From: Octopus sinensis
Taxonomy: Eukaryota
Direction: 5' to 3'
DNA: 64,000 nt
NCBI RefSeq assembly: GCF_006345805.1
Contig: NC_043007.1
Span: 33,046,001-33,110,000 of the forward strand
Positions 3,622 through 62,940 of this stretch are shown here, in pieces. Both the position numbers and the translations under genes were made by a program. Every line of letters starts with the position of its first letter. The first letter of the stretch is position 1. The notes under the pieces were generated by a model. That model saw only the letters and a list, made by a program, of their open reading frames with translations, was not told where the DNA came from and made no database searches.

Positions 3622-4159
3622 TATATGTATGTATGTATTTATGCATATACACACACTCGCACATATCCAATCAATAACTATGAAAGTATGAAAGATTTAA
3701 ATCATTCAGTGACGACCGAACAGGACTATTGCAGATATCGTGTTGCGTTCATAATTAGTGACAAGATGTTATGCGTCTGCGGTAAATATATAACTGGCAG
3801 GCAAGATAAAAAGACACGCTGCTCTAATAGGATTTTCCCGAGAGTAGAATATCTACCAGGAATAATTCTGTATAAATAGTCAGTTTCTTAAGTATGTATT
3901 CGTATTAGCTGAGTGGATATGTGTGTAATTTACTAGAAAACTGATAAATTTGTTGTCCGTTCTCTCGATGTATTCAGTCTCCTGCTCTATCGTTCTTTCT
4001 CGCCCTGTTGTTATCTTTTCCATTTTGTTTCCTCCTATTTCGCACTGGATTCTTTTTTCAATCTCCTCCTTCTGTCTCTCTTTCTCTCTGTACTCGTACA
4101 CATATCCATGTGCGATTGCATGTAAATAGATATACGTATACGTTTATAAATATATAAAA

Positions 4160-4387
4160 AACTTTATTGCCCACAAGGGGCTAAACATAGAGGGTACAAA
4201 CAAGGACAACAAACGGATTAAGTCGATTACACCGACCCCAGTGCGTAACTGATACTTTATTTATCGACCCCTAAAGGATGAAAGGCAAACTCGACTTCGG
4301 CGGAATTTGAACTCAGAACGTAACGGCAGACGAAATACGGCTACGCATTTCACCCGGCGTGCTAACGGTTCTGCCAGCTCGGCGCCT
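4160..4387 (-). mobile_element. SINE family B with 20-bp target-site duplication
   Basis: TSD tatacgtttataaatatata at 4137-4156 and 4388-4407. Confidence 0.9.
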
Positions 4388-4407
4388 TATACGTTTATAA
4401 ATATATA

Positions 4408-4630
4408 TTTCTTTACTACCCACAAGGGGCTAAACATAGAGGGGACAAACAAGGACAGACAAACGGATTAAGTCGATTATATCGACCACAGTAACAGGTA
4501 CTTATTTAATCGACCCCGAAAGGATGAAAGGCAAAGTCGACCTCGGCGGAATTTGAACTCAGAACGTAGCGGCAGATGAAATACCGCTAAGAATGTCGCC
4601 TGGTGTGCTAACGTTTCTGCCAGCTCGCCT
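4408..4630 (-). mobile_element. SINE family B
   Basis: Full-length match to other B copies. Confidence 0.88.
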
Positions 4631-5071: not shown

Positions 5072-5258
5072 TAAGCAATTAAGGGTTTAGCAACGAATTG
5101 CCTTACCACACACCGAATTTAGAAATAGCAGTCAAAGAGATTATAGCTATTTCTTCTACTAAAAGGAAGATCACAGTAAAGGCACAGCATTTGAAAGGCA
5201 AACACAAACAGGTAAAAGAGAATGAATTAACGGCAATCTATCATACAGTTTTAAGTCA

Positions 5259-5350
5259 TCTACGGACGTACGTTTCGAGATCAAGTCTTAGGAAAGCATA
5301 AGAATTAGATAACTCTACTTTACCCAGACTTCTTCTTTCATCAGCGCAGG
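5259..5350 (-). ncRNA. Type I hammerhead ribozyme, unit 1
   Basis: cctgcg-CTGATGA-long stem II-GAAA-cgtac-GTC-cgtag. Confidence 0.85.
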
Positions 5351-5836
5351 ATACTAACAATCATGAATGATTGAATATTGAATTTTGAGATACTAGAAGG
5401 CACCAACTCAACTCAGTATCAGAGCGAGCTAGAAGCCACAGCTAGTATCACCAAATTCAAAGTATGAATGAAAGCTTGTGTCACCAGTCCCTTCCCACCG
5501 CGTGTAGCCAAGACAAAGTGCTGTGGTCATTTACTGGATGAATATGGTTTATGAGTAACAATGAAGGGTGAAATTAATTTGGAACATTATCAATTACACC
5601 AAGTAGTCTTCGGCATGTAAAAGCCTCATTCGAGGAAAATTTAAGTAATTCTAAGCAATTAAGGGTTTAGCAACGAATGCCTTACCACACACCGAATTTA
5701 GAAATAGAGTCAAAGAGATTATAGCTATTTCTTCTACTAAAAGGAAGATCACAGTAAAGGCACAGCATTTGAAAGGCAAACACAAACAGGTAAAAGAGAA
5801 TGAATTAACGGCAATCTATCATACAGTTTTAAGTCA

Positions 5837-5927
5837 CCTACGGACGTACGTTTCGAGATCAAGTCTTAGGAAAGCATAAGAATTAGATAATTCTACTTTA
5901 CCCAGACTTCTTCTTCATCAGCGCAGG
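5837..5927 (-). ncRNA. Type I hammerhead ribozyme, unit 2
   Basis: Same motif, intact core. Confidence 0.87.
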
Positions 5928-6421
5928 ATACTAACAATCATGAATGATTGAATATGAATTTTGAGATACTAGAAGGCACCAACTCAACTCAGTATCAGAG
6001 CGAGCTAGAAGCCACAGCTAGTATCACCAAATTCAAAAGGGAATGAAAGCTTGTGTCACCAGTCCCTTCCCACCCGCGTGTAGCCAAGACAAAGTGCTGT
6101 GGTCAGTTACTGGGTGAATATGGTTTATGAGTAACAAAATGAAGGGTGAAATTAATTAATTGGACACAATTATCAATTACACCAAGTAGTCTTCGGCATG
6201 TAAAAGCCTCTTCGAGGAGGAAATTTAAGTAATTCTAAGCAATTAAGGGTTAGCAACGAATTGCCTTACCACACACCGAATTTAGAAATAGCAGTCAAAG
6301 AGATTATAGCTATTTCTTCTACTAAAAGGGAGATCACAGTAAGGCACAGCATTTGAAAGGCAAACACAAACAGTATAAAAGAGAATGAATTAACGGCAAT
6401 CTATCATACAGTTTTAAGTCA

Positions 6422-6512
6422 CCTACGGACGTACGTTTTGAGATCAAGTCTTCGGAAAGCATAAGAATTAGATAACTCTACTTACCCAGACTTCTTCTTT
6501 CATCAGCGCAGG
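6422..6512 (-). ncRNA. Type I hammerhead, unit 3 (GAAA read as AAAA)
   Basis: gtacgttttg instead of gtacgtttcg: a G12A mutation or a sequencing error. Confidence 0.7.
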
Positions 6513-7005
6513 ATACTAACAATCATGAATGATTGAATATTGAATTTTGAGATACTAGAAGGCACCAACTCAACTCAGTATCAGAGCGAGCTAGAAGCCA
6601 CAGCTAGTATCACCAAATTCAAAGTATGAATGAAAGCTTGTGTCACCAGTCCCTTCCCCCCGCGCGTGTAGCCAGACAAAGTGCTGTGGTCATTTACTGG
6701 GATGAATATGGTTTATGAGTAACAATGAAGGGGGTGAAATTAATTAATTTGGAACAATTATCATTACACCAAGTAGTCTTCGGCATGTAAAAGCCTCATT
6801 CGAGGAAAATTTAAGTAATTCTAAGCAATTAAGGGTTTAGCAACGAATTGCCTTACCACACACCGAATTTAGAAATAGCAGTCAAAGAGATTATAGCTAT
6901 TCTTCTACTAAAAGGGAGATCACAGTAAAGGCACAGCATTTGAAAGGCAAACACAAACAGGTAAAAAGAATGAATTAACGGCAATCTATCATACAGTTTT
7001 AGTCA

Positions 7006-7095
7006 CCTACGGACGTACGTTTCGAGATCAAGTCTTAGGAAAGCATAAGAATTAGATAACTCACTTTACCCAGACTTCTTCTTCATCAGCGCAGG
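7006..7095 (-). ncRNA. Type I hammerhead ribozyme, unit 4
   Basis: Same motif, intact core. Confidence 0.87.
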
Positions 7096-7634
7096 ATACT
7101 AACAATCATGAATGATTGAATATTGAATTGAGATACTAGAAGGCACCAACTCAACTCAGTATCAGAGCGAGCTAGAAGCCACAGCTAGTATCACCAAATT
7201 CAAAGTATGAATGAAAGCTTGTGTCACCAGTCCCTTTTAGTAGAAGAAATAGCTATAATCTCTTTGACTGCTATTTCTAAATTCGGTGTGTGGTAAGGCA
7301 ATTCGTTGCTAAACCCTTAATTGCTTAGTATTACTTAAATTTTCCTCGAATGAGGCTTTTACATGCCGAAGACTACTTGGTGTAATTGATAATTGTTCCA
7401 AATTAATTAATTTCACCCTTCATTGTTACTCATAAACCATATTCATCCCAGTAAATGACCACAGCACTTTGTCTTGGCTACACGCGGGTGGGAAGGGACT
7501 GGTGACACAAGCTTTCATTCATACTTTGAATTTGGTGATACTAGCTGTGGCTTCTAGCTCGCTCTGATACTGAGTTGAGTTGGTGCCTTCTAGTATCTCA
7601 AAATTCATATTCAATCATTCATGATTGTTAGTAT

Positions 7635-7724
7635 CCTGCGCTGATGAAGAAGAAGTCTGGTAAAGTAGAGTTATCTAATTCTTATGCTTTCCTAAGACTT
7701 GATCTCGAAACGTACGTCCGTAGG
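7635..7724 (+). ncRNA. Type I hammerhead ribozyme, inverted unit
   Basis: Stem I cctgcg(7635-40)/cgtagg(7719-24); CTGATGA 7641-47; stem II aagtct..aaagta/tgcttt..agactt; GAAA 7707-10; palindromic cgtacg; GUC 7716-18. Confidence 0.88.
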
Positions 7725-8020
7725 TGATAAAACTGTATGATAGATTGCCGTTAATTCATTCTTTTTTACCTGTTTGTGTTTGCCTTTCAAATGTTGTGCC
7801 TTTACTGTGATCTTCTTTTAGTAGAAGAAATAGCTATAATCTCTTTGACTGCTATTTCTAAATTCGGTGTGTGGTAAGGCAATCGTTGCTAAACCCTTAA
7901 TTGCTTAGAATTACTTAAATTTTCCTCGAATGAGGCTTTTACATGCCGAAGACTACTTGGTGTAATTGATAATTGTTCCAATTAATTAATTTCACCCTTC
8001 ATTGTTACTTATATATCTAT

Positions 8021-8971: not shown

Positions 8972-8976
<5 letters not shown>

Positions 8977-9136
8977 GAGTAATTGAATGAATCATCTTAT
9001 TAAGGATAATCGAAAGATAACCGATTACATGGGTACTCCTTATTCCTCGGAATTAGGAATATGCAGCCTTCGAAACATATGTCGAGAATAAAGGATACTT
9101 GTTAACTAGTCGTTCAACTCCATTCTTTCATATACT

Positions 9137-25057: not shown

Positions 25058-25820
25058 GCGGCGAGCTAGCAGAAACGTTAGCACGCCGGTCGAAATACTT
25101 AGCAGCATTTCGTCTGCCGTTACGTTCTGAGTTCAAATTCCGCCGAGGTCCACTTTGCCTTTCATCCTTTCGGGGTCGATAAATTAAGTACCAGTTGCGC
25201 TCTGGGGTCGATATAATCGACTTAATCCGTTTGTCTGTCCTTGTTTGCCCTCTCTGTGTTTAGCACCTTGTGGGTAGTAAAGAAATAGGTATTTCGTCCA
25301 CCGCTACGTTCTGAGTTCAAATTCCGCCGCGGTCGACTTTGCCTTTCATCCTTTCGGGGTCGATTAAATAAGTACCAATTACGCACTGAGGTCGATATAA
25401 TCGACTTGATCCGTTTGTCTGTCCTTGTTTGTCCTCTCTGTGTGTACCCCTCTGTGGGTAGTAAAGAAATAGAAATAGGTATTTCGTTTGTCTCTATGTT
25501 CTGAGCTCAAATTCCGCCGAGGTTGACTTTGCCTTTCATCCTTTCTGGGTCGATTAAATAAGTACCAGGTACGCACTGGGATCGATATAATCGACTTAAT
25601 CCGATTGTCTTTCCTTGTTTGTCCCTTCTGTGTTTAACCCCTTGTGGGTAGTAAAGAAATAGGTATTTCGTCTGCCGCTACGTTCTGAGTTCAAATTCTG
25701 CCGAGGTCGACTTTGCCTTTTCGGGGTCGATAAATTAAGCACTATTTGCGTACTGGGATCGATCTAAGCGATTGGCTCCCTCCCTGAAAATTTCAGGCCT
25801 TATGCCTAGAGTAGAAACGA
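25058..25820 (+). mobile_element. SINE family B with three partial tandem re-copies
   Basis: Body restarts at ggtatttcgt at ~25288, ~25478 and ~25662. Confidence 0.88.
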
Positions 25821-31899: not shown

Positions 31900-33531
31900 G
31901 ATTCGAATTGAAGATTTCTTGCACCAAGGTTTTAATGCAGAACACACAGAAAACATGGTACTGCAGACATTAATTGTTTAGCAACTGGGCTGCCTGAACC
32001 TATTGGAGTACCTCAGCTTGATCATCGTGAAGACCTCGATCACCCATGCATTGCAACACTTACTAATGAACAAAGACAGTTTGCTAATGCTGTGCTTGAA
32101 TCTGTAGATAAAAAAGAGGAGAGGTGAGATGCCCAACCACTCCTGTTTCTATGCAGATGCACCAGGAGGTTACTCTTTACTTACTTGTTTCAGTCATGTG
32201 ACTGGAGCCATGCTTGAGCACCGCCCTTAGTCGAGCAAATCGACCCCAGGACTTATTCTTTGGAAGCCTAGTACTTATTCTATCGGTCTCTTTTGCTGAA
32301 CCGCTAAGTTACGGGGACGTAAACACACCACCATCGGTTGTCAAGCGATGTTGGGGGGACAAACACATACACACAAACATACACAGACACTCATACACAC
32401 ATACATGTATATGTTTACATATATACGACAGGCTTCTTTCAGTTTCCGTCTACCAAATCCACTCACAAGGCTTTGGTCGGCCCGAGGCTATAGAAGACAC
32501 TTGCCCAAGGTGCCACGCAGTGGGACTGAACCCGGAGCCATGTGGTTGGTAAGCAAGCTACTTACCACACAGCCACTCCTACGCCTGTGGTAAAACTTAT
32601 GTTTAATACCATAATTTGTTATCTGCGAAGGAACAACTGCAACATGTGCAGTGGTGCTTGGACAGGCATTGCCTTTACACTACTGTCAGGTGGAAAGACT
32701 ATCCATAGTTTGTTCAAGTTGCCTGTCCCACTCACGGATGCTAGTGTTTGTAATGTACCAGCCACTTCAGACCATGCAAATTATTTACGAAACCTGGATT
32801 TGATCATCTTGGATGAGGTTTTTATGATCCCTTCATTTGCACTTCATGCTTTTGATAGATCTTTGCAAGATATCACTAGCATTGCTGCTGTTTTTGGTGG
32901 TAAATTTATGCTCTTGGGAGGAGACTTTAAGCAAGTCCTACCCATATTGCTAAGAGGAGCTCGTGAGGCAATTATTGAAATCTGTATTAAAAATTCTCCT
33001 CCATGGCTGAATTTCATCCAATACAGATTAAGCCAGATCAACTGCAGATCAAAGGGAATTTTCAGCATGGCTCTTGTATCTTGGCAACGGAACATATGCA
33101 GCTCCACAAGATTCTAATCTTGCTGTTGATGACATAGAAGTGCCTCATATTTCACGCGTTGACGGCTCTCTGATGGATGATATCTTCAACAATACATCTG
33201 CGGAAGAAAGAAGAAGCAGTCATTTTTACGCCAAAGAACTAAGACTGCTTCCTGATCTATGAAGAAGTTTTGAGACAACTTCCAGGTGACTGCTGCACCT
33301 GTTATAGTACAGATAAAGTTTTGACCGATGATCTTGCTGAGGCTGAGCGCTATCCACTTGAATTTCTTGAACTCTTTGACACCATCAGGAATGGCGCCGC
33401 ATAAATTGAGTTTAAAACCCAGCTCAATAGTAATACTTCTTCGTAACATTTCTATCCAGAATGAACTTTTCAATGGTACAAGACTGGAAGTGGTGGCCAT
33501 GCATCAACATTCAATCGAGGCTTCCTTGATT
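31900..33531 (+). pseudogene. Helitron Rep/Helicase PIF1-like helicase fragment (frameshifted, SINE-interrupted)
   Basis: DAPGG|CGKT Walker A, AWTGIA, GKTIHSLFKLP, LIILDE, LLGGDFKQVLP, FLNSLTPSGMAPHKLSLK, NGTRL motifs. Confidence 0.9.
32171..32586 (-). mobile_element. SINE family A inserted in the helicase Walker A
   Basis: Full-length SINE between gga ggt and tgt ggt aaa act. Confidence 0.92.
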
Positions 33532-33554
33532 AGTTTATGTATACACACACACAT

Positions 33555-33820
33555 GGTCTCTATAGTCTCGGGGCAATCAAAACAACTGAAAGAAGCTTAT
33601 CGATTATGTGTGTGTGTGTGTTTGTCCCCCACCACTGCTTGACAACAATGTTGGTGCGTTTACGTACTTGTCATGTAGCGATTCGTCAAGAGAGGCCGAC
33701 AGGATAAGTACTAGGCTTTAAAAAGAAATTAAGATCTGGAGTCGATTCAGTCAACTAAAAATTATTCAAGGCTGTGTTCCAGCTTGGCCGCAGTCTAATG
33801 GCTGTAACATGTAAAAGACA
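33555..33820 (+). mobile_element. SINE family A, partial
   Basis: Tail similarity. Confidence 0.7.
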
Positions 33821-37526: not shown

Positions 37527-37915
37527 AAATACAGTAGGGTATCAGAATACCACTTGCTAGAAAAAGGAGCTAACACCCCAAAACCACAAATTTCTCACTA
37601 TTAATAAATACGCACGGTGAATGCAACGGATATAATAGAATAGGCTTACCTTGTATAAACTGCAAAAGCAAGAAACAGATATCCTGGTATCAATTGATTT
37701 CACCTTTTCTACCTTTGTAATGAAGCATCGTCAGCCAGACTCACTGTATTCATCTATTTTTGAAAATATTCATCACATTACACCATGCGTATTCATTAAT
37801 AGTGAGAAATTTGTGGTTTTGAGTGTAGTTCCTCTTCCCAGCAAGTGATATTCTGATAGCCTACTCTATTTATTTGTATATTTTACCTATATAGGTTAAA
37901 CTTGCTGGCCATTTT
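37527..37915. mobile_element. Inverted-arm HHR element
   Basis: ~95-bp arms at 37527-37622 and ~37773-37871 enclosing the HHR. Confidence 0.78.
37684..37738 (-). ncRNA. Type I hammerhead ribozyme
   Basis: ctgg-CTGACGA-t-gctt..aggt-GAAA-tcaattga(palindrome)-TA-ccag. Confidence 0.75.
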
Positions 37916-41367: not shown

Positions 41368-41370
<3 letters not shown>

Positions 41371-41770
41371 GAAAGAATGGAGTTGAACGACGAATTAACA
41401 AAATTCCTTTATTTTCGACATATGTTTCAAAGGCTGCATATTCCTAATTTCGAAGGAATAAGGAGTGCATTATGCCGCCTTCTCATCAGGAAAAACAAGG
41501 AACTTATGTCAGCATCAAGATGAACAAAAACTTTTAGATGACTGCCAACACGGAGCCCATAGCGAGAATAAAGGAATTTTGTTAATTCGTCGTTCAACTC
41601 CATTCTTTCATTTATTTGTATTAAAAAAACACACAAATTTCCACACGAAAGCACATGATCTCTGCCCTTGGCATGTAGCTTCAACCGTGTTTTTCTGGCG
41701 TGAGTTTGCTACCCAGGTATCGGTTAACCGAATTATCCATAATAAGACAATTCATTCAACTACTCAAATA
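41368..41770. mobile_element. HHR element with inverted segment in (TA)n
   Basis: 41368-41416 is the reverse complement of 41564-41612. Confidence 0.82.
41412..41494 (-). ncRNA. Type I hammerhead ribozyme
   Basis: ttttc-CTGATGA-gaaggc..gccttt-GAAA-catatg-TC-gaaaa. Confidence 0.8.
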
Positions 41771-41847
<77 letters not shown>

Positions 41848-41887: not shown

Positions 41888-42150
41888 ATATTGTTGTATT
41901 TAGGAATGGTCATTTTGCCAGTTTAGCCAATATAAACACACGCACTATATTTGGTGTTACTTTGCTTCAGCGTTATTTATTTTTTACATTAATCTTTTTT
42001 CGGCCAGGAGTATGACGAAAGAACTCTGGCCGAAATAAGATTAAGATTAATGTAAAAAATAAATAACGCTGAAGCAAAGTAACACCAAATATGTAGTGCG
42101 TGTTTTATTGGCTAAACTGGGAAAATGACCATTCCTAAAAACAACAATAT
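41888..42150. repeat. ~125-bp-arm foldback in (TA)n
   Basis: atattgttg..tcggccag / ctggccga..caacaatat. Confidence 0.88.
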
Positions 42151-42188
42151 GTGTGTATATATATATATATATGCATGTGTGTGTGTAC

Positions 42189-42344
42189 ATATAAGAGGCA
42201 TGGCCACTAAGTGGACATCCATTATGCTAGAAGTCGCCCCCCTATGGTCTTACCACTAAGAAAGGAATGTTCTCAAGTGGTAAGACCATAGGGGGTCGAT
42301 TTCTAGCATAATGGAATTCCACTTAGTGGTCATCCCTCCTATAT
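42189..42344. repeat. ~75-bp-arm foldback
   Basis: ccactaagtgga..tggtcttaccact / agtggtaagacca..tccacttagtgg. Confidence 0.88.
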
Positions 42345-42476
42345 GTATGTAATATAATTTTTGTGAATCTTCAGATTTCTCAATTTGCTAGACCACTGGT
42401 TTTAAACTGATATTAATCAAATTAATATTCAATTTTTCACCCTTATTATCTTAAATTTAGATATATTATATATACA

Positions 42477-42542
<66 letters not shown>

Positions 42543-42548
<6 letters not shown>

Positions 42549-42733
42549 GGGTTAAGCAACAAGTTACTTCACCACATACCATATGTGGTGAAGAAGCTTG
42601 TTGCTAAACCCTTAATTATATTTAATTATATAAAAAATTTTTATGTAAAAGTTTCTACCGATAATGGTCCTCTTTCCATACCGAAGCTACTTGGTAAAAT
42701 TTGTTAATTATCAAATGAATAATTCTTTACCCT
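42543..42733. mobile_element. Truncated snap-back relative of the 580-bp array family
   Basis: aattaagggttaagcaac.. / gttgctaaacccttaatt and ccgaagctacttggt..accct match the array unit. Confidence 0.7.
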
Positions 42734-43400
42734 ATATATATATGAATATATATATACGGTAAGCACGATCAAGGTTTCCAAGTGTAAGAATTAAGTAAGC
42801 CTCGGGCATGTGTGCAGCTTTCCATTCCTATACCCTTCGGGATAAATATATTTATATATATATATATATATACATATGTGTGTGTGCGTGTGCGTGTGTA
42901 TGTATGTATGTATGTATAGCCAAAATACTATTGAGAAAAATCACATATCTAGTTGTAGAATTCACTGTATAAACGCGATAGTTGTTTCTATTTAGATGTA
43001 GAAAATATCATTGAAATTAGCACTCCCGAAAAATACATGTTAACACAACGTTTCCAAGGTGATCCGAAATTATTTAAATTCAAAGTGTTCGCTATATCTA
43101 AATATGTTCATACGACACAAACAATTACCGGCTTTGTAAGGTGAATTCTACAATTAAAGATGCTATTTTTCATTATACGTATTTTTCTTGTCTAATACTC
43201 TGAATTTGTGGAAATACTTCCAAATGATATTTGGACCTACTTGTCATACATGAGGAATTAAAGAGGAATTACCTTGGATGTGTATTCTACTTGCATTTAC
43301 TGGTGTCTGATTGTTGGATGTAGTTAAGCAGTGTTTTATTGATATCTGCCTGGATTTTTTAATCCCCTTTCTTTCTACTTACACACACACACACAAACAT

Positions 43401-43740: not shown

Positions 43741-43747
43741 TATATAT

Positions 43748-44020
43748 AAGAAACAAGGATATCCAGAGGTAATGCAGTACGATCGTTTCACGCAACTCCA
43801 TTTAATTGAACAATGCAACCATTACAGCAATTTAAATGCAGAGCACTCTTCAGCTGTACAAAGACATAGATTTAAGCAAATTAAAACAGATGGACACATT
43901 AGTATAATTTTAACTAAAATCTCCAAGACGTAAAGGGGATAGACAAAGAACATGCTGCTTTCACTTCTAAGTAGAAGTGAAGGCATCATGTTCTTTGTCT
44001 ATCTCCTTAACTTCTTGGAG

Positions 44021-52130: not shown

Positions 52131-52707
52131 CTAGAGCGTGTGCTGCCAAGGTAGGTGGAACTTGTCCACCACGTTCAATCGCTGCTCGTTGATGGTGATG
52201 TTGGACTCAACGTAGGGCTTGGCTGGAGCTGGTTGATACATTACCTCAGTCTTTTTTGTATTGATAGTAAGGCCAAAGTTGTTACAGGCGCCAGAGAACA
52301 AGTCAACGCTGTACTGCATGTTGGACTCAGTGACAGCATTGAGAGCGCAGTCATCGGCGAACAGGAGGTCGTTGACGGTGTCTACTGAAATCTTGGTTTA
52401 CGCTTTGAGCCTCCCGAGGTTGAAGACTGAACCGTCGGACCGGTACTTGATGCCGACGCCTATGTCTGTGTCCCTGAAAGCAACTGTCAGCATGGCTGAG
52501 AACGTAATTGCTGAAGAAGGTGGGAGCAAGGACACATCAGAGATCTCTCCGTTGTCCTGTACCCTTGCCAACATGCCATCGTGTAGTTGCCTTACGATGG
52601 TGATGAATTTTCTGGGGCATCCATACTTCGGCAAGATTCTCCAGAGACCTTCTCTACTAATGGTATCAAAGGCCTTGGTCAGATCGATGTAGGTGGAGTA
52701 GAGATCT
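52131..52707 (-). mobile_element. RTE-clade LINE reverse transcriptase fragment
   Basis: IDLTKAFDTISREGLWRIL, KYRSDGSVFNLGRLKA, DLLFADDCAL, FGLTINTKKTEVM; internal stop, frameshift and deletion. Confidence 0.92.
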
Positions 52708-52732
52708 ATAGATATATACTATATATATATAA

Positions 52733-53960: not shown

Positions 53961-54135
53961 CATTTTTATTTTTATTCGAAATTACTGTTACGTATCCCGT
54001 CGAAAGAACAAATTTCATCAGCAATATTGCTGCTGAAACTTGTTCTTTGTCTATCTAGTTATCCTCTTTGTGATTTTGGTTAATAGAATAACTATGCAAA
54101 TGAATCCTTTGAATTTAACTAAATTCTATATTTTT

Positions 54136-54225
54136 ATGCAGCTGAAGATTGCTCTACATTTTAAAACTGATGTAATATTTGCATTGTTCAATTAAATGGA
54201 GTCGCATGAAACGATCGTACTGCAT
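54136..54225 (+). ncRNA. Type I hammerhead ribozyme (element ~54003-54250)
   Basis: atgcag-CTGAAGA(54142-48)..GAAA(54208-11)-cgatcg-TA-ctgcat; perfect 6-bp stem I. Confidence 0.8.
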
Positions 54226-54899
54226 TACCTCTGGATATCCTTGTTGCTTATTTATATATATATACAATGGGCCTCTTTCAGTTTCCGTGTACCAAATCCA
54301 CTCACAAGGCTTTGATCAGCCTGAGGCATTAGTAGAAGACACTTGCATAGAATCATTTCGTTAATATTTTCTAACGTTTGTTTAGTAGTTTTTTTAAACA
54401 CTTAGTGCTATCATGTGTTGAGTAGTCTTGCTTATCTACAGCAGTACGAAGAATAATCTAAAGGGAAGCCTGAGCGACTTAGAGCATTCCATCTCCATGT
54501 GACCCTTTAAGACTGTTTTGTATGATACTTAATGACATGGATATATAAACATAACTGATAACAGAAATTCAGTGATTCAAAAGCGATTATTTGCACATTC
54601 ACTTTTTGATACGTTCTGACAAATTCGAATGCGAATATGCGTATCGCCATTGTATTTCGTCATTAAAGAATGCTTTTCGTTTCAGACGAATGCTTGTTAG
54701 TAACAAGTTCGATTAATTAGGATAAGGGGCCATTAAGACACCCAGTGTTTCGACATCTTTGCGTCTCCTCAGTGAAAGCTCTTCCGGATTAATGAATCTA
54801 ACGAGACATTGTGGCTTTTTTTTTTATTCACCAAACAGATTATTTACTGATGTATTTCTGATGTCTGCGAACCGATAATAAATTTTAAGAGCCCCACCA

Positions 54900-57553: not shown

Positions 57554-57692
57554 GGTCGACTTTGCCTTTCATCCTTTCGGGGTCGATAAATAAAGTACCA
57601 GTTTCGCACTGGGGTCGATATAATCGACTTAATCCGTTTGTCTGTCCTTGCTTGTCCCTTCTATGTTTAGCCCCTTGTGGGTAGTAAAGAAA
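57554..57692 (+). mobile_element. SINE family B, 3' part
   Basis: Match to family B. Confidence 0.85.
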
Positions 57693-57948
57693 TATATATA
57701 TATATTGTATATATATATATATATATTATATATAAATTAATCAATTTAGGGTAGCAAAAATTCAGTAAAAATTATCGCTACCACGGCTGGTGGAAAAGAC
57801 AAAATAGTCAAAGACTAAATAGATTAAATATAACAATTTAGGAATGGCCGAAACAGGCCATTCGTCCCAGAACAGAGCAGCCAGAACCCAACCGCCAGTA
57901 GTGACATTCGGAATAAGGTGAAAATTTAAAAAAATTTACCCTAATTCA

Positions 57949-58048
57949 TCTTTTATACGATGCATCGTTTCAGTGTCTTTAATGATAGCACCAGCTTAAT
58001 TAAATTAAATTAAGTAGTCTACCATAGGTCACATTCATCAGTAAAAGA
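57949..58048 (-). ncRNA. Type I hammerhead ribozyme, unit 1
   Basis: tctttta-CTGATGA..GAAA-cgatgcatc-GTA-taaaaga. Confidence 0.83.
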
Positions 58049-58413
58049 AACCTGGGAGAGACGGATATACACGAGGCGACGTATCAATGCCTCGGGAATA
58101 TCTGTTTAAAATTTTCAAGACCAACGCATTCGCGCAAACTTATCGGCAGCAAATATAAAACTGCCGATTCAATCTCAGAATTAGTCAGAAAATTACAATT
58201 AATAATTTAGGGAGCAAAAAAAATCAGTAAAAATTTATCGCTACCAGCGGCCTGGTGGAAAAGAGAAAATAGTCAAAGACTAAATAGATAAATATAACAA
58301 TTTAGAATGGCCTAAACAGGCCATTCGTCCACAGAAAGAGCAGCCAGAACTCCAACGCCAAGTAGTGTAATTCGGAAATAAGGTGAAAATTTAAAAACAT
58401 TTACCCTAATTCA

Positions 58414-58513
58414 TCTTTTATACGATGCATCTTTCAGTGTCTTTAATGATAGACCAGCTTAATTAAATTAAATTAAGCTAGTCTACCATAGGTCACACTT
58501 CATCAGTAAAAGA
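58414..58513 (-). ncRNA. Type I hammerhead, unit 2 (1-nt deletion in stem III)
   Basis: atctttc versus atcgtttc in the other units. Confidence 0.75.
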
Positions 58514-58879
58514 AACCTGGGAGAGACGGATATACACGAGGCGACTGTATCAATGCCTCGGGAATATCTGTCTTAAAATTTTCAAGACCAACGCATTCGC
58601 GCCAAACTTATCGGCAGCAAATAAAACTGCCGATTCAATCTCAGATTAGTCAGAAAATTATCAATAATCAATTTAGGGTAGCAAAAATTCAGTAAAAATT
58701 TATCGCTACCAGCGGCCTGGTGGAAAAGAGAAAATAGTCAAGACTAAATAGATAATATAACAATTTAGGAATGGCCTAAACAGGCCATTCGTCCACCAGA
58801 AAGAGCAGCCAGAACTCCAACCGCCAAGTAGTGTAATTCGGAAATAAGGTGAAAATTTAAAAACATTTACCCTAATTCA

Positions 58880-58980
58880 TCTTTTATACGATGCATCGTT
58901 TCAGTGTCTTTAATGATAGACCAGCTTAATTAAATTAAATTAAGCTAGTCTACCATAGGTCACACTTCATCAGTAAAAGA
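58880..58980 (-). ncRNA. Type I hammerhead ribozyme, unit 3 (intact)
   Basis: 7-bp stem I; stem II agtgt..atggtagactagcttaatt/aattaagctggtctatcat..acact; palindromic cgatgcatcg; GUA site. Confidence 0.9.
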
Positions 58981-59150
58981 AACCTGGGAGAGACGGATAT
59001 ACACGACGCACACAATCATACACGCACATACATACAAACATACATACACACGTACGTACCTACGTACATACATTGATGCATACATAAAACTACATAATAT
59101 GTGTGAAAGTTGGAATTCCTACACCTCGATTATGATGGAGACACCCACGC

Positions 59151-59195
<45 letters not shown>

Positions 59196-59552
59196 ATTAA
59201 TAAATATAAGGGTAGCAAAAAATTCTAGAAAAAATTTTCCGCTACCAGCGGTCTAGTGAGAAAGAGAAAATAGTCAAAGACTATATAATATACATTCAAC
59301 AATATAAGGAATGGCCATATAGGACATTCGACTCACTAGAAAATTTATGTATACGTATGTGTGCACGTTTGTGTATGTGTGCGCGCTCGTGCGTTGTGTA
59401 TGTGTATGGAATTCTCTTAGCTTCCAGATCCTCCAGTGCTATCATCGTAACGGGCAACGAACCTTCTTCACACATATATATTTATGCGTGAATTATGTGT
59501 TTGCTTGTGTGTATGTGTGTTTGTTTGTGTGCGCGTGTGTGTGTGTGTGTGT

Positions 59553-62872: not shown

Positions 62873-62940
62873 TTCTCATGCCGGGAATCGAACCCGGGCC
62901 GCCTGGGTGAAAGCCAGGAATCCTGACCACTAGACCACAT
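62873..62940 (-). pseudogene. tRNA-Glu(TTC) copy lacking the first 4 nt
   Basis: ATGTGGTCTAGTGGTCAGGATTCCTGGCT-TTC-ACCCAGGCGGCCCGGGTTCGATTCCCGGCATGAGAA; D, anticodon and T arms intact; 5' acceptor strand replaced by (AAT)n. Confidence 0.85.

Follow-up and report, generated by a model that had tools for sequence, protein, structure and literature searches.

The tandem array on the minus strand at 57735..59006 of the window, by which we mean the whole 64,000-nucleotide stretch of DNA that was analysed, is, with a probability of about 0.78, a recent copy from an abundant octopus family of non-coding repeats, likely to be a non-LTR retrozyme inserted into a (TA)n microsatellite by a Penelope-like reverse transcriptase-endonuclease. 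It is a real, non-random repeat that carries a predicted ribozyme, probably once active or active still. The array consists of head-to-tail units of a few hundred bp that are non-coding, below 50% G+C and present in many copies, which are features of animal non-LTR retrozymes.

The array, its hammerheads and its 3′ end

The array ends proposed in the sequence-only reading, 57735 and 59006, are both correct, and its account of 2.7 repeated units on the minus strand was confirmed. The features of the array and its surroundings are as follows, with minus-strand elements inside the array written in the direction of the ribozyme strand where a hyphen is used.

57735..59006, minus: tandem array, 2.7 units in direct repeat, 1272 bp, 36% G+C
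57692..57734: (TA)n microsatellite abutting the 3′ end of the array, with a SINE-like repeat next to it
59007..59090: (TG)/(TATG)n microsatellite flanking the array on its 5′ (truncated) side
58880..58980, minus: unit 3 hammerhead, intact type I, from descriptor match, fold and family variants
58980-58974/58886-58880, minus: unit 3 stem I, 7 bp
58973-58967, minus: unit 3 CUGAUGA
58966-58903, minus: unit 3 stem II, 5 bp, a 5x5 internal loop and 19 bp
58902-58899, minus: unit 3 GAAA
58898-58889, minus: unit 3 palindrome, 10 nt
58887, minus: predicted unit 3 cut, after A17 of the GUA site
58414..58513, minus: unit 2 hammerhead, lacking C15.2 as assembled, predicted cut after 58421
57949..58048, minus: unit 1 hammerhead, core boxes intact, three stem II indels, predicted cut after 57956
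58769..58790, minus: internal 9-bp hairpin, unit 3 copy
58610..58634, minus: internal 9-bp hairpin, unit 3 copy
57735..57782, minus: 3′ terminal signal, a hairpin at 57782-57750 and then an AU-rich run to UUAAUU at 57735
59150..59194: (TA)n microsatellite abutting the 3′ end of the diverged fragment
59195..59342, minus: diverged 3′-end fragment of the same family, without ribozyme, 78-82% identity
59246-59211, minus: 16-bp terminal hairpin of the diverged fragment

With predicted cuts after 58887, 58421 and 57956, the array reads, 5′ to 3′, as 120 nt to the first cut, monomers of 466 and 465 nt, and 221 nt to the 3′ end. The unit had been given as ~463 bp; the tandem repeat stands and the length does not, since 465-466 nt separate the predicted cuts and the family monomer is ~470 nt. 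Unit 3 lacks several letters that are present in public contigs, which places the family monomer nearer 470 than 463. The longest stop-free frame of the repeat unit is 61 codons, and no open reading frame above that length was found in it.

The NUH cut-site rule and the hammerhead position numbering are used here in their ordinary sense. Unit 3 has the CUGANGA and GAAA cores, three helices, an open helix I and an NUH site of a type I hammerhead, and the 7-bp stem I, the 10-nt palindromic stem III and the GUA site that had been described are all seen in it, with a stem II of 24 bp. It lacks the G10.1-C11.1 pair, the 6-bp helix I and the 4-bp helix II of the narrow canonical metazoan definition, so that the array hammerhead is a variant type I, non-canonical in the narrow sense. 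The pair at 10.1-11.1 is A-U in all three units, as opposed to the usual G-C that canonical and minimal hammerheads carry (PMC4209133), and this may lower ribozyme activity; a U-U mismatch at 10.1-11.1 has been reported active (PMC3088659), so a mispair with A10.1 does not exclude it. In the assembled sequence the type I hammerhead is intact in unit 3 alone and no two consecutive ribozymes are complete, compared with the two or more consecutive complete hammerheads of an "active" retrozyme copy (bioRxiv 10.64898/2026.07.22.740005). In unit 2 the loss of C15.2, probably a sequence error, breaks both stem III and the palindrome. The earlier description of a textbook core in each unit therefore applies to unit 3, but not to unit 2 (no C15.2) or unit 1 (stem II indels), nor to the A-U pair at 10.1-11.1.

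A descriptor of the motif gave no match in 5000 dinucleotide shuffles of the unit and none in 60 shuffles of the whole window, and the fold z scores were -5.8 for the ribozyme and -8.3 for the monomer. Folding of unit 3, which had been suggested as a check, put the active hammerhead fold at -40.4 kcal/mol, but a fold that mispairs the core is the lowest in energy at -41.4 kcal/mol, which leaves the active fold about 1 kcal/mol worse. Two tertiary contacts are possible by eye, without covariation: GACCU in the internal loop of stem II could pair with AGGUU 5′ of stem I, and a UG bulge after stem I could make canonical loop contacts. Rfam hammerhead models gave no match at the gathering score in the 64-kb window, where the only match was a tRNA, and were absent too from the 32 matches obtained in 57700-59400 at E up to 10, likely because of the long stem II. 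A 22-nt core pattern had no matches in metagenome and viral contigs, which are uninformative sources for an animal repeat.

The array stops 221 nt past the last predicted cut, just after the terminal hairpin (unit 3 copy at 58710-58677), and passes directly into the (TA)n tract at 57692..57734, its likely insertion target. The diverged fragment also runs to this UUAAUU base and then into a separate (TA)n tract, so that both of the two family copies in the window (the array and the ~80% fragment), a small number, share one 3′ end; from this we infer that the terminal signal at 57735..57782 is a candidate start site of reverse transcription. The fragment had been reported as an older diverged piece at 59205-59342. 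It is real, but it runs to 59195, and because its terminal hairpin is kept perfect it may represent another subfamily as much as a decayed copy. The 5′ end of the array is truncated inside a unit, and the combination of a fixed 3′ end, 5′ truncation and a microsatellite target is that of Penelope-type insertions. No target-site duplication of at least 4 bases was found in the 60-nt flanks of the array and no inverted 5′ piece within 57735..59006; an inverted 5′ piece or a 30-40-bp tail is optional for insertions of this type (PMC8557442).

The array lies less than 200 bp from the only other family copy in the window, in the same orientation (gap 59006-59195), a closeness that may have come about by re-insertion nearby or because both copies targeted one microsatellite. 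A single CCCTAA, which we take to be the reverse of the TTAGGG telomere repeat, is found at 57746-57751, ~10 nt before the 3′ end of the array. A CCCTTA occupies a comparable place (5078-5083) in the family at 5-8 kb, a post hoc observation that is possibly due to chance.

The family in public sequencing runs

The host is an octopus: a SINE-derived reading frame elsewhere in the window has five relatives among 12 candidates, and the three of them with a named organism come from Octopus vulgaris and O. bimaculoides. Array words were present in 20 of 24 public runs from seven studies, and one unit was compared with the contigs of four of the 24 runs, covering three organism codes. Array words also occur under organism codes C and D, which are outside those three, and none of the runs with array words is recorded as RNA. 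Two of the four runs are DNA-like, and X2 is only guessed to be RNA. The runs are stored as contigs, and depth was summed over words and is not a copy number. In the DNA-like runs, the richer of which may share its source with the window, 1052 and 618 contigs matched the unit, at a summed word depth mostly of 10^5 or more. The array thus belongs to a very abundant octopus repeat family. The head-to-tail joint of the unit was recovered in all four runs, although in contigs a circular-RNA joint is indistinguishable from a tandem DNA joint. The fraction of matched contig sequence that continues into unlike sequence was 0 and 0.01 in the DNA-like runs, and 0.47 and 0.61 in the guessed-RNA runs. 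Among the loose ends listed, with 100 more beyond them, none fell at the 3′ terminus.

Variation within the family keeps the hammerhead fold, supporting the original reading of the motif and of its strand. Position 17 is only A or C among the variants listed (GUA or GUC), with C accounting for 69% and 54% of depth. At one stem III pair both bases are exchanged, A-U becoming U-A within a single contig, in X20 and again in X2, and the palindrome is kept. This two-sided change, together with a position 17 limited to A or C across subfamilies, points to selection on cleavage during the spread of the family. Inside eight predicted helices, nine of 13 DNA variants keep pairing against an expected 18-36% (p between 7e-5 and 0.015, values that are too small because the variants are linked in subfamilies). 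Four break a pair, and two of those four fall at 11.1, where both disrupt the first pair of stem II; the base there is U, A or C opposite A10.1, with A in 65% and 43% of depth. All three DNA variants in distal stem II keep their pairs, as do the three variants listed for the hairpin at 58610..58634, and in the hairpin at 58769..58790 one family variant replaces A-U by G-C on both sides and another breaks a pair. No variant was found at the 14 core positions among those listed, compared with 0.9 expected, which alone is not significant. Sixteen further variants are all A-to-G on the ribozyme strand, and so there is no C, U or G core change in the four runs.

The A-to-G variants also carry a hint of transcription. 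In run X2, 19 places show A-to-G on the ribozyme strand, each under 5% in both DNA-like runs (18 if the further DNA variants differ between runs), beside 0 U-to-C, the mirror type, and 5 of all other types. The sixteen further variants are all T-to-C on the plus strand, and only one reaches 5% in the DNA-like runs. This asymmetry suggests minus-strand transcription and ADAR hyper-editing, a frequent fate of repeats in octopus, where such editing is strong (PMC5625713). The signal comes mainly from one contig of depth 3.2 with no DNA run of the same animal matched to it, and run X20 has no A-to-G excess. One X2 contig starts three letters from the predicted cut site; contig ends do not show RNA ends.

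The public contigs also bear on the differences between the units of the array, which are almost all single-base gaps: unit 2 differs from unit 3 by 1 substitution and 18 gap columns, and unit 1 by 5 substitutions and 16 gap columns. Several letters missing from unit 3 occur in both unit 2 and the public contigs. Neither of the damaging deletions of units 1 and 2 is among the 12 of 18 family indels listed, which makes them probably assembly errors. The pattern as a whole probably reflects long-read consensus errors, so that the true units are probably near-identical. At aligned polymorphic places, the unit 3 allele is carried by unit 2 at 30 of 30 and by unit 1 at 24 of 24, compared with the ~10 and ~8 differences from unit 3 that independent draws from the family would give. 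One haplotype across three units indicates a single template, whether a circle, an uncut multimer or a locally duplicated stretch.

Proposed mechanism, known systems and rival explanations

Under the retrozyme reading, the minus strand would be transcribed, as the strand-specific A-to-G changes of one guessed-RNA run suggest, into a multimeric RNA that is predicted to be cut into ~470-nt monomers. The fold and its variants predict that the hammerhead would cut after GUA or GUC, either in a monomer closed by the 3-bp stem III or in a dimer joined at the palindrome. By analogy with other retrozymes in the literature, the monomers may then be circularised by a host ligase. A helper enzyme would nick (TA)n and start cDNA synthesis just 3′ of the hairpin, 221 nt past the cut, as judged from the two copies with the same end, and the cDNA would run 2.7 rounds on the circle, or along an uncut multimer, and stop; the product is seen in the array and its route is inferred. 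Several of these steps have precedents. Coral, mussel and axolotl retrozymes self-cleave and accumulate as circles (PMC7229834). In the anole, a purified Penelope-like protein cleaves AT-rich DNA and initiates at an internal stem-loop (PMC11167929). A preference for (TA)n is shown by the Naiad and Hydra families of octopus Penelope-like elements (PMC8557442 supplement), and Penelope-like families are reported to make up 6.83% of the O. vulgaris genome. On the other side, eight of nine predicted Xenopus retrozyme dimers were left uncut in vitro (bioRxiv 10.64898/2026.07.22.740005), and the hammerhead of the anole element depended on protein and could be dispensed with for insertion in vitro (PMC11167929). 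None of the 145 scanned frames of the window gave a Penelope-type match that could supply the helper, and six short exact family motifs were absent from one supplement of Penelope-like consensus sequences, in which line breaks could hide matches.

The surprise implied when the array was first described is not warranted, as animal non-LTR retrozymes, known from corals, mussels and amphibians, have already been described as tandem repeats with type I hammerheads (PMC7229834; bioRxiv 10.64898/2026.07.22.740005), and an octopus PLE hammerhead, Hydra-1_Obim, is already on record (PMC8557442 supplement). Since the class is known, the array alone is ordinary transposon biology. Like those retrozymes, it is a non-coding tandem repeat of low G+C in a short array, with one type I hammerhead per unit and a mollusc host. 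Its ~470-nt unit compares with RNAs of 170-400 nt in PMC7229834 and falls within the 51-972 bp of bioRxiv 10.64898/2026.07.22.740005, and it differs from animal retrozymes in a 24-bp stem II with an internal loop and in a 10.1-11.1 pair that is not G-C. The available parts of these two sources do not mention a 3′ end fixed at a hairpin that (TA)n follows, nor do those parts of their main texts cover a cephalopod ("octop" has 0 matches in PMC7229834). No report of octopus retrozymes or of ADAR editing of retrozymes was found among the matches listed, and supplements, Repbase and Dfam may hold the family; the word "ribozyme" is absent from the parts seen of the octopus repeat and RNA papers PMC13282606 and PMC9699675. 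The insertion route of animal retrozymes is still a hypothesis in the published work, and a fixed hairpin 3′ end, a (TA)n target and PLEs of the same genus that target (TA)n make the retrozyme-insertion hypothesis testable.

Other known systems share parts of this design. PLE pseudo-LTR hammerheads (PMC4209133; Hydra-1_Obim, PMC8557442 File S2) are likewise type I, with a palindromic helix III suited to dimers, a longer-than-usual helix II, (TA)n targets and fixed 3′ ends; unlike them, the array has neither an ORF nor G10.1-C11.1, its sequence is unlike the Hydra-1_Obim hammerhead, and its stems I-III of 7, 24 and 3+1 bp are longer than those of minimal PLE motifs (PMC4209133). Anole Poseidon PAc (PMC11167929) also has an AT-rich target and starts at an internal stem-loop downstream of its hammerhead, but it is autonomous and has two start sites in an AC-rich stem-loop within its ORF, compared with the one end point of the array family. 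Newt satellite 2 and Schistosoma Sm-alpha (PMC6155905) are satellite-like repeats with type I hammerheads that use a dimer mechanism through a weak helix III. Their canonical helices are 6 and 4 bp (PMC4209133), and stem II of the array extends beyond the internal loop.

If the unit were the pseudo-LTR of an autonomous Penelope-like element, its copies would be 5′-truncated insertions or local multimers with no free retrozyme RNA cycle. The fixed 3′ end and (TA)n target fit such an origin, as do the half or so of guessed-RNA contig sequence that runs into unlike sequence (0.47 and 0.61) and the match of Xenopus retrozymes to PLE pLTRs, where 24 of 57 families matched known elements, 21 of 22 being PLEs. 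Against this, next to none of the matched sequence in the DNA-like runs (0 and 0.01) continues into unlike sequence, although short contigs could hide rare ORF links; the unit is joined to itself in each of the four runs compared; it has no ORF longer than 61 codons; and the Hydra-1_Obim hammerhead differs, by eye, in all three stems. We consider this origin unlikely. An autonomous Penelope-like element as such was rejected, as no ORF combining RT and GIY-YIG was found in the unit or among the 145 low-complexity-filtered frames (at least 62 aa) of the window.

Amplification as DNA, in which a monomer inserted once was multiplied by unequal crossover or by slippage, would make the array a satellite-like repeat and its ribozyme a non-cutting relic, a model discussed in bioRxiv 10.64898/2026.07.22.740005. 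Near-identical neighbouring units fit recent local duplication as well as they fit rolling reverse transcription, and the weak, variable 10.1-11.1 pair is consistent with a relic. It is nevertheless quite improbable, given that the stem III change preserves the palindrome and position 17 holds to A or C across subfamilies, and given an array that is short, dispersed and fixed at one end as opposed to a long satellite block. It is scarcely likely that the array is a host-adopted non-coding RNA locus, with a structured, edited RNA that has a regulatory job in octopus cells. The stable fold, the presence of the family in three organism codes and the hint of editing are consistent with such a role, but very high abundance, many subfamilies, truncated copies borne on microsatellites and the presence of four parallel families within 64 kb speak for selfish spread, and structured repeats are ordinarily hyper-edited, strongly so in octopus (PMC5625713).

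An extension of the retrozyme reading, which we regard as doubtful, is an octopus radiation of retrozyme families with long stem II and, in each, a fixed hairpin-marked Penelope-type start, in which the AU-rich stem II would also serve as an ADAR substrate and its editing would switch the ribozyme off. If true, the spread of retrozymes would be linked directly to internal initiation by Penelope-like proteins, and cephalopod editing machinery would control how many RNA circles persist.

Other hammerhead families and neighbouring features in the window

Descriptor scans found at least four unrelated hammerhead families in the 64-kb window, including that of the array, which bears out the earlier suggestion that the design recurs. 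The three further families share the type I fold, a stem III that is palindromic and a stem II domain of 54-64 nt; all end at (TA)n, and none has a detectable relation to the family of the array.

5072-8013: array at 5-8 kb, ~3.7 units running one way plus an inverted piece at 7231-8013, flanked by (TA)n at each end
41368-41774, minus: third family, core at 41489, CAUAUG palindrome, GUC site; second copy at 8973-9131
~54040-54250, plus: fourth family, CUGAAGA at 54142; second copy at 43747-43958, minus

The 5-8 kb array, a Penelope-type tandem/inverted insertion, was held to be unrelated to the array at 57735..59006, and this was upheld. No blastn or nhmmer match links the two, their alignment score of 83 compared with 64 +/- 10 for shuffles is not significant, and the score of their termini was reached by 180 of 2000 shuffles. 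Common ancestry was thus rejected despite short motifs recurring near both ends. The two had also been said to share the same architecture, which is right for the type I fold, the ~60-nt stem II domain and the palindromic stem III, but not for the 6-nt palindrome, GUC site, ~580-bp units and inverted part of the 5-8 kb array. Its hammerhead at 6506 has AAAA instead of GAAA.

Both copies of the third family have the same 3′ end before (TA)n and an inverted 5′ piece that ends at a second shared point. Inverted 5′ pieces, present in the 5-8 kb array and in this 41.4 kb family, are a mark of Penelope-like insertions (PMC8557442). The fourth family has a CGAUCG palindrome, a GUA site and a 6-bp stem I, and its two copies, which have diverged, retain the core and share one end point next to (TA)n. 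A decayed fifth hammerhead is possible at 37640-37760 on the minus strand, with a core at 37734, an 8-nt palindrome, a 5-bp stem I, a poor stem II and a fold z of 0.45. The occurrence of four unrelated hammerhead families within 64 kb suggests an abundance of such ribozymes in octopus genomes, in a host with exceptional A-to-I editing.

Several other repeats were observed. A short relative of the end of the 5-8 kb family lies at 42543-42735, folded back (z -13), with (TA)n on both sides and no ribozyme. Long inverted repeats at 41934-42105 and 42186-42347, with arms of 63 and 72 nt that are ~90% complementary, lie between (TA)n tracts and are possibly fold-back insertions or MITEs. Broken PIF1 helicase frames at 32530-33639 on the plus strand (Pfam PIF1, E 6.5e-35; Pif1_2B_dom, E 1.3e-11) are probably a Helitron remnant. 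The only reverse transcriptase remnant in the window is a decayed fragment with one stop at 52134-52718 on the minus strand (RVT_1, weak), presumably of LINE rather than Penelope type. A tRNA-like sequence at 62878-62940 on the minus strand scores above the Rfam gathering score (49 bits), and tandem copies of the SINE-like repeat occur at 4137-4627 and 25107-25720 (246 bp x2 and 184 bp x3.3).
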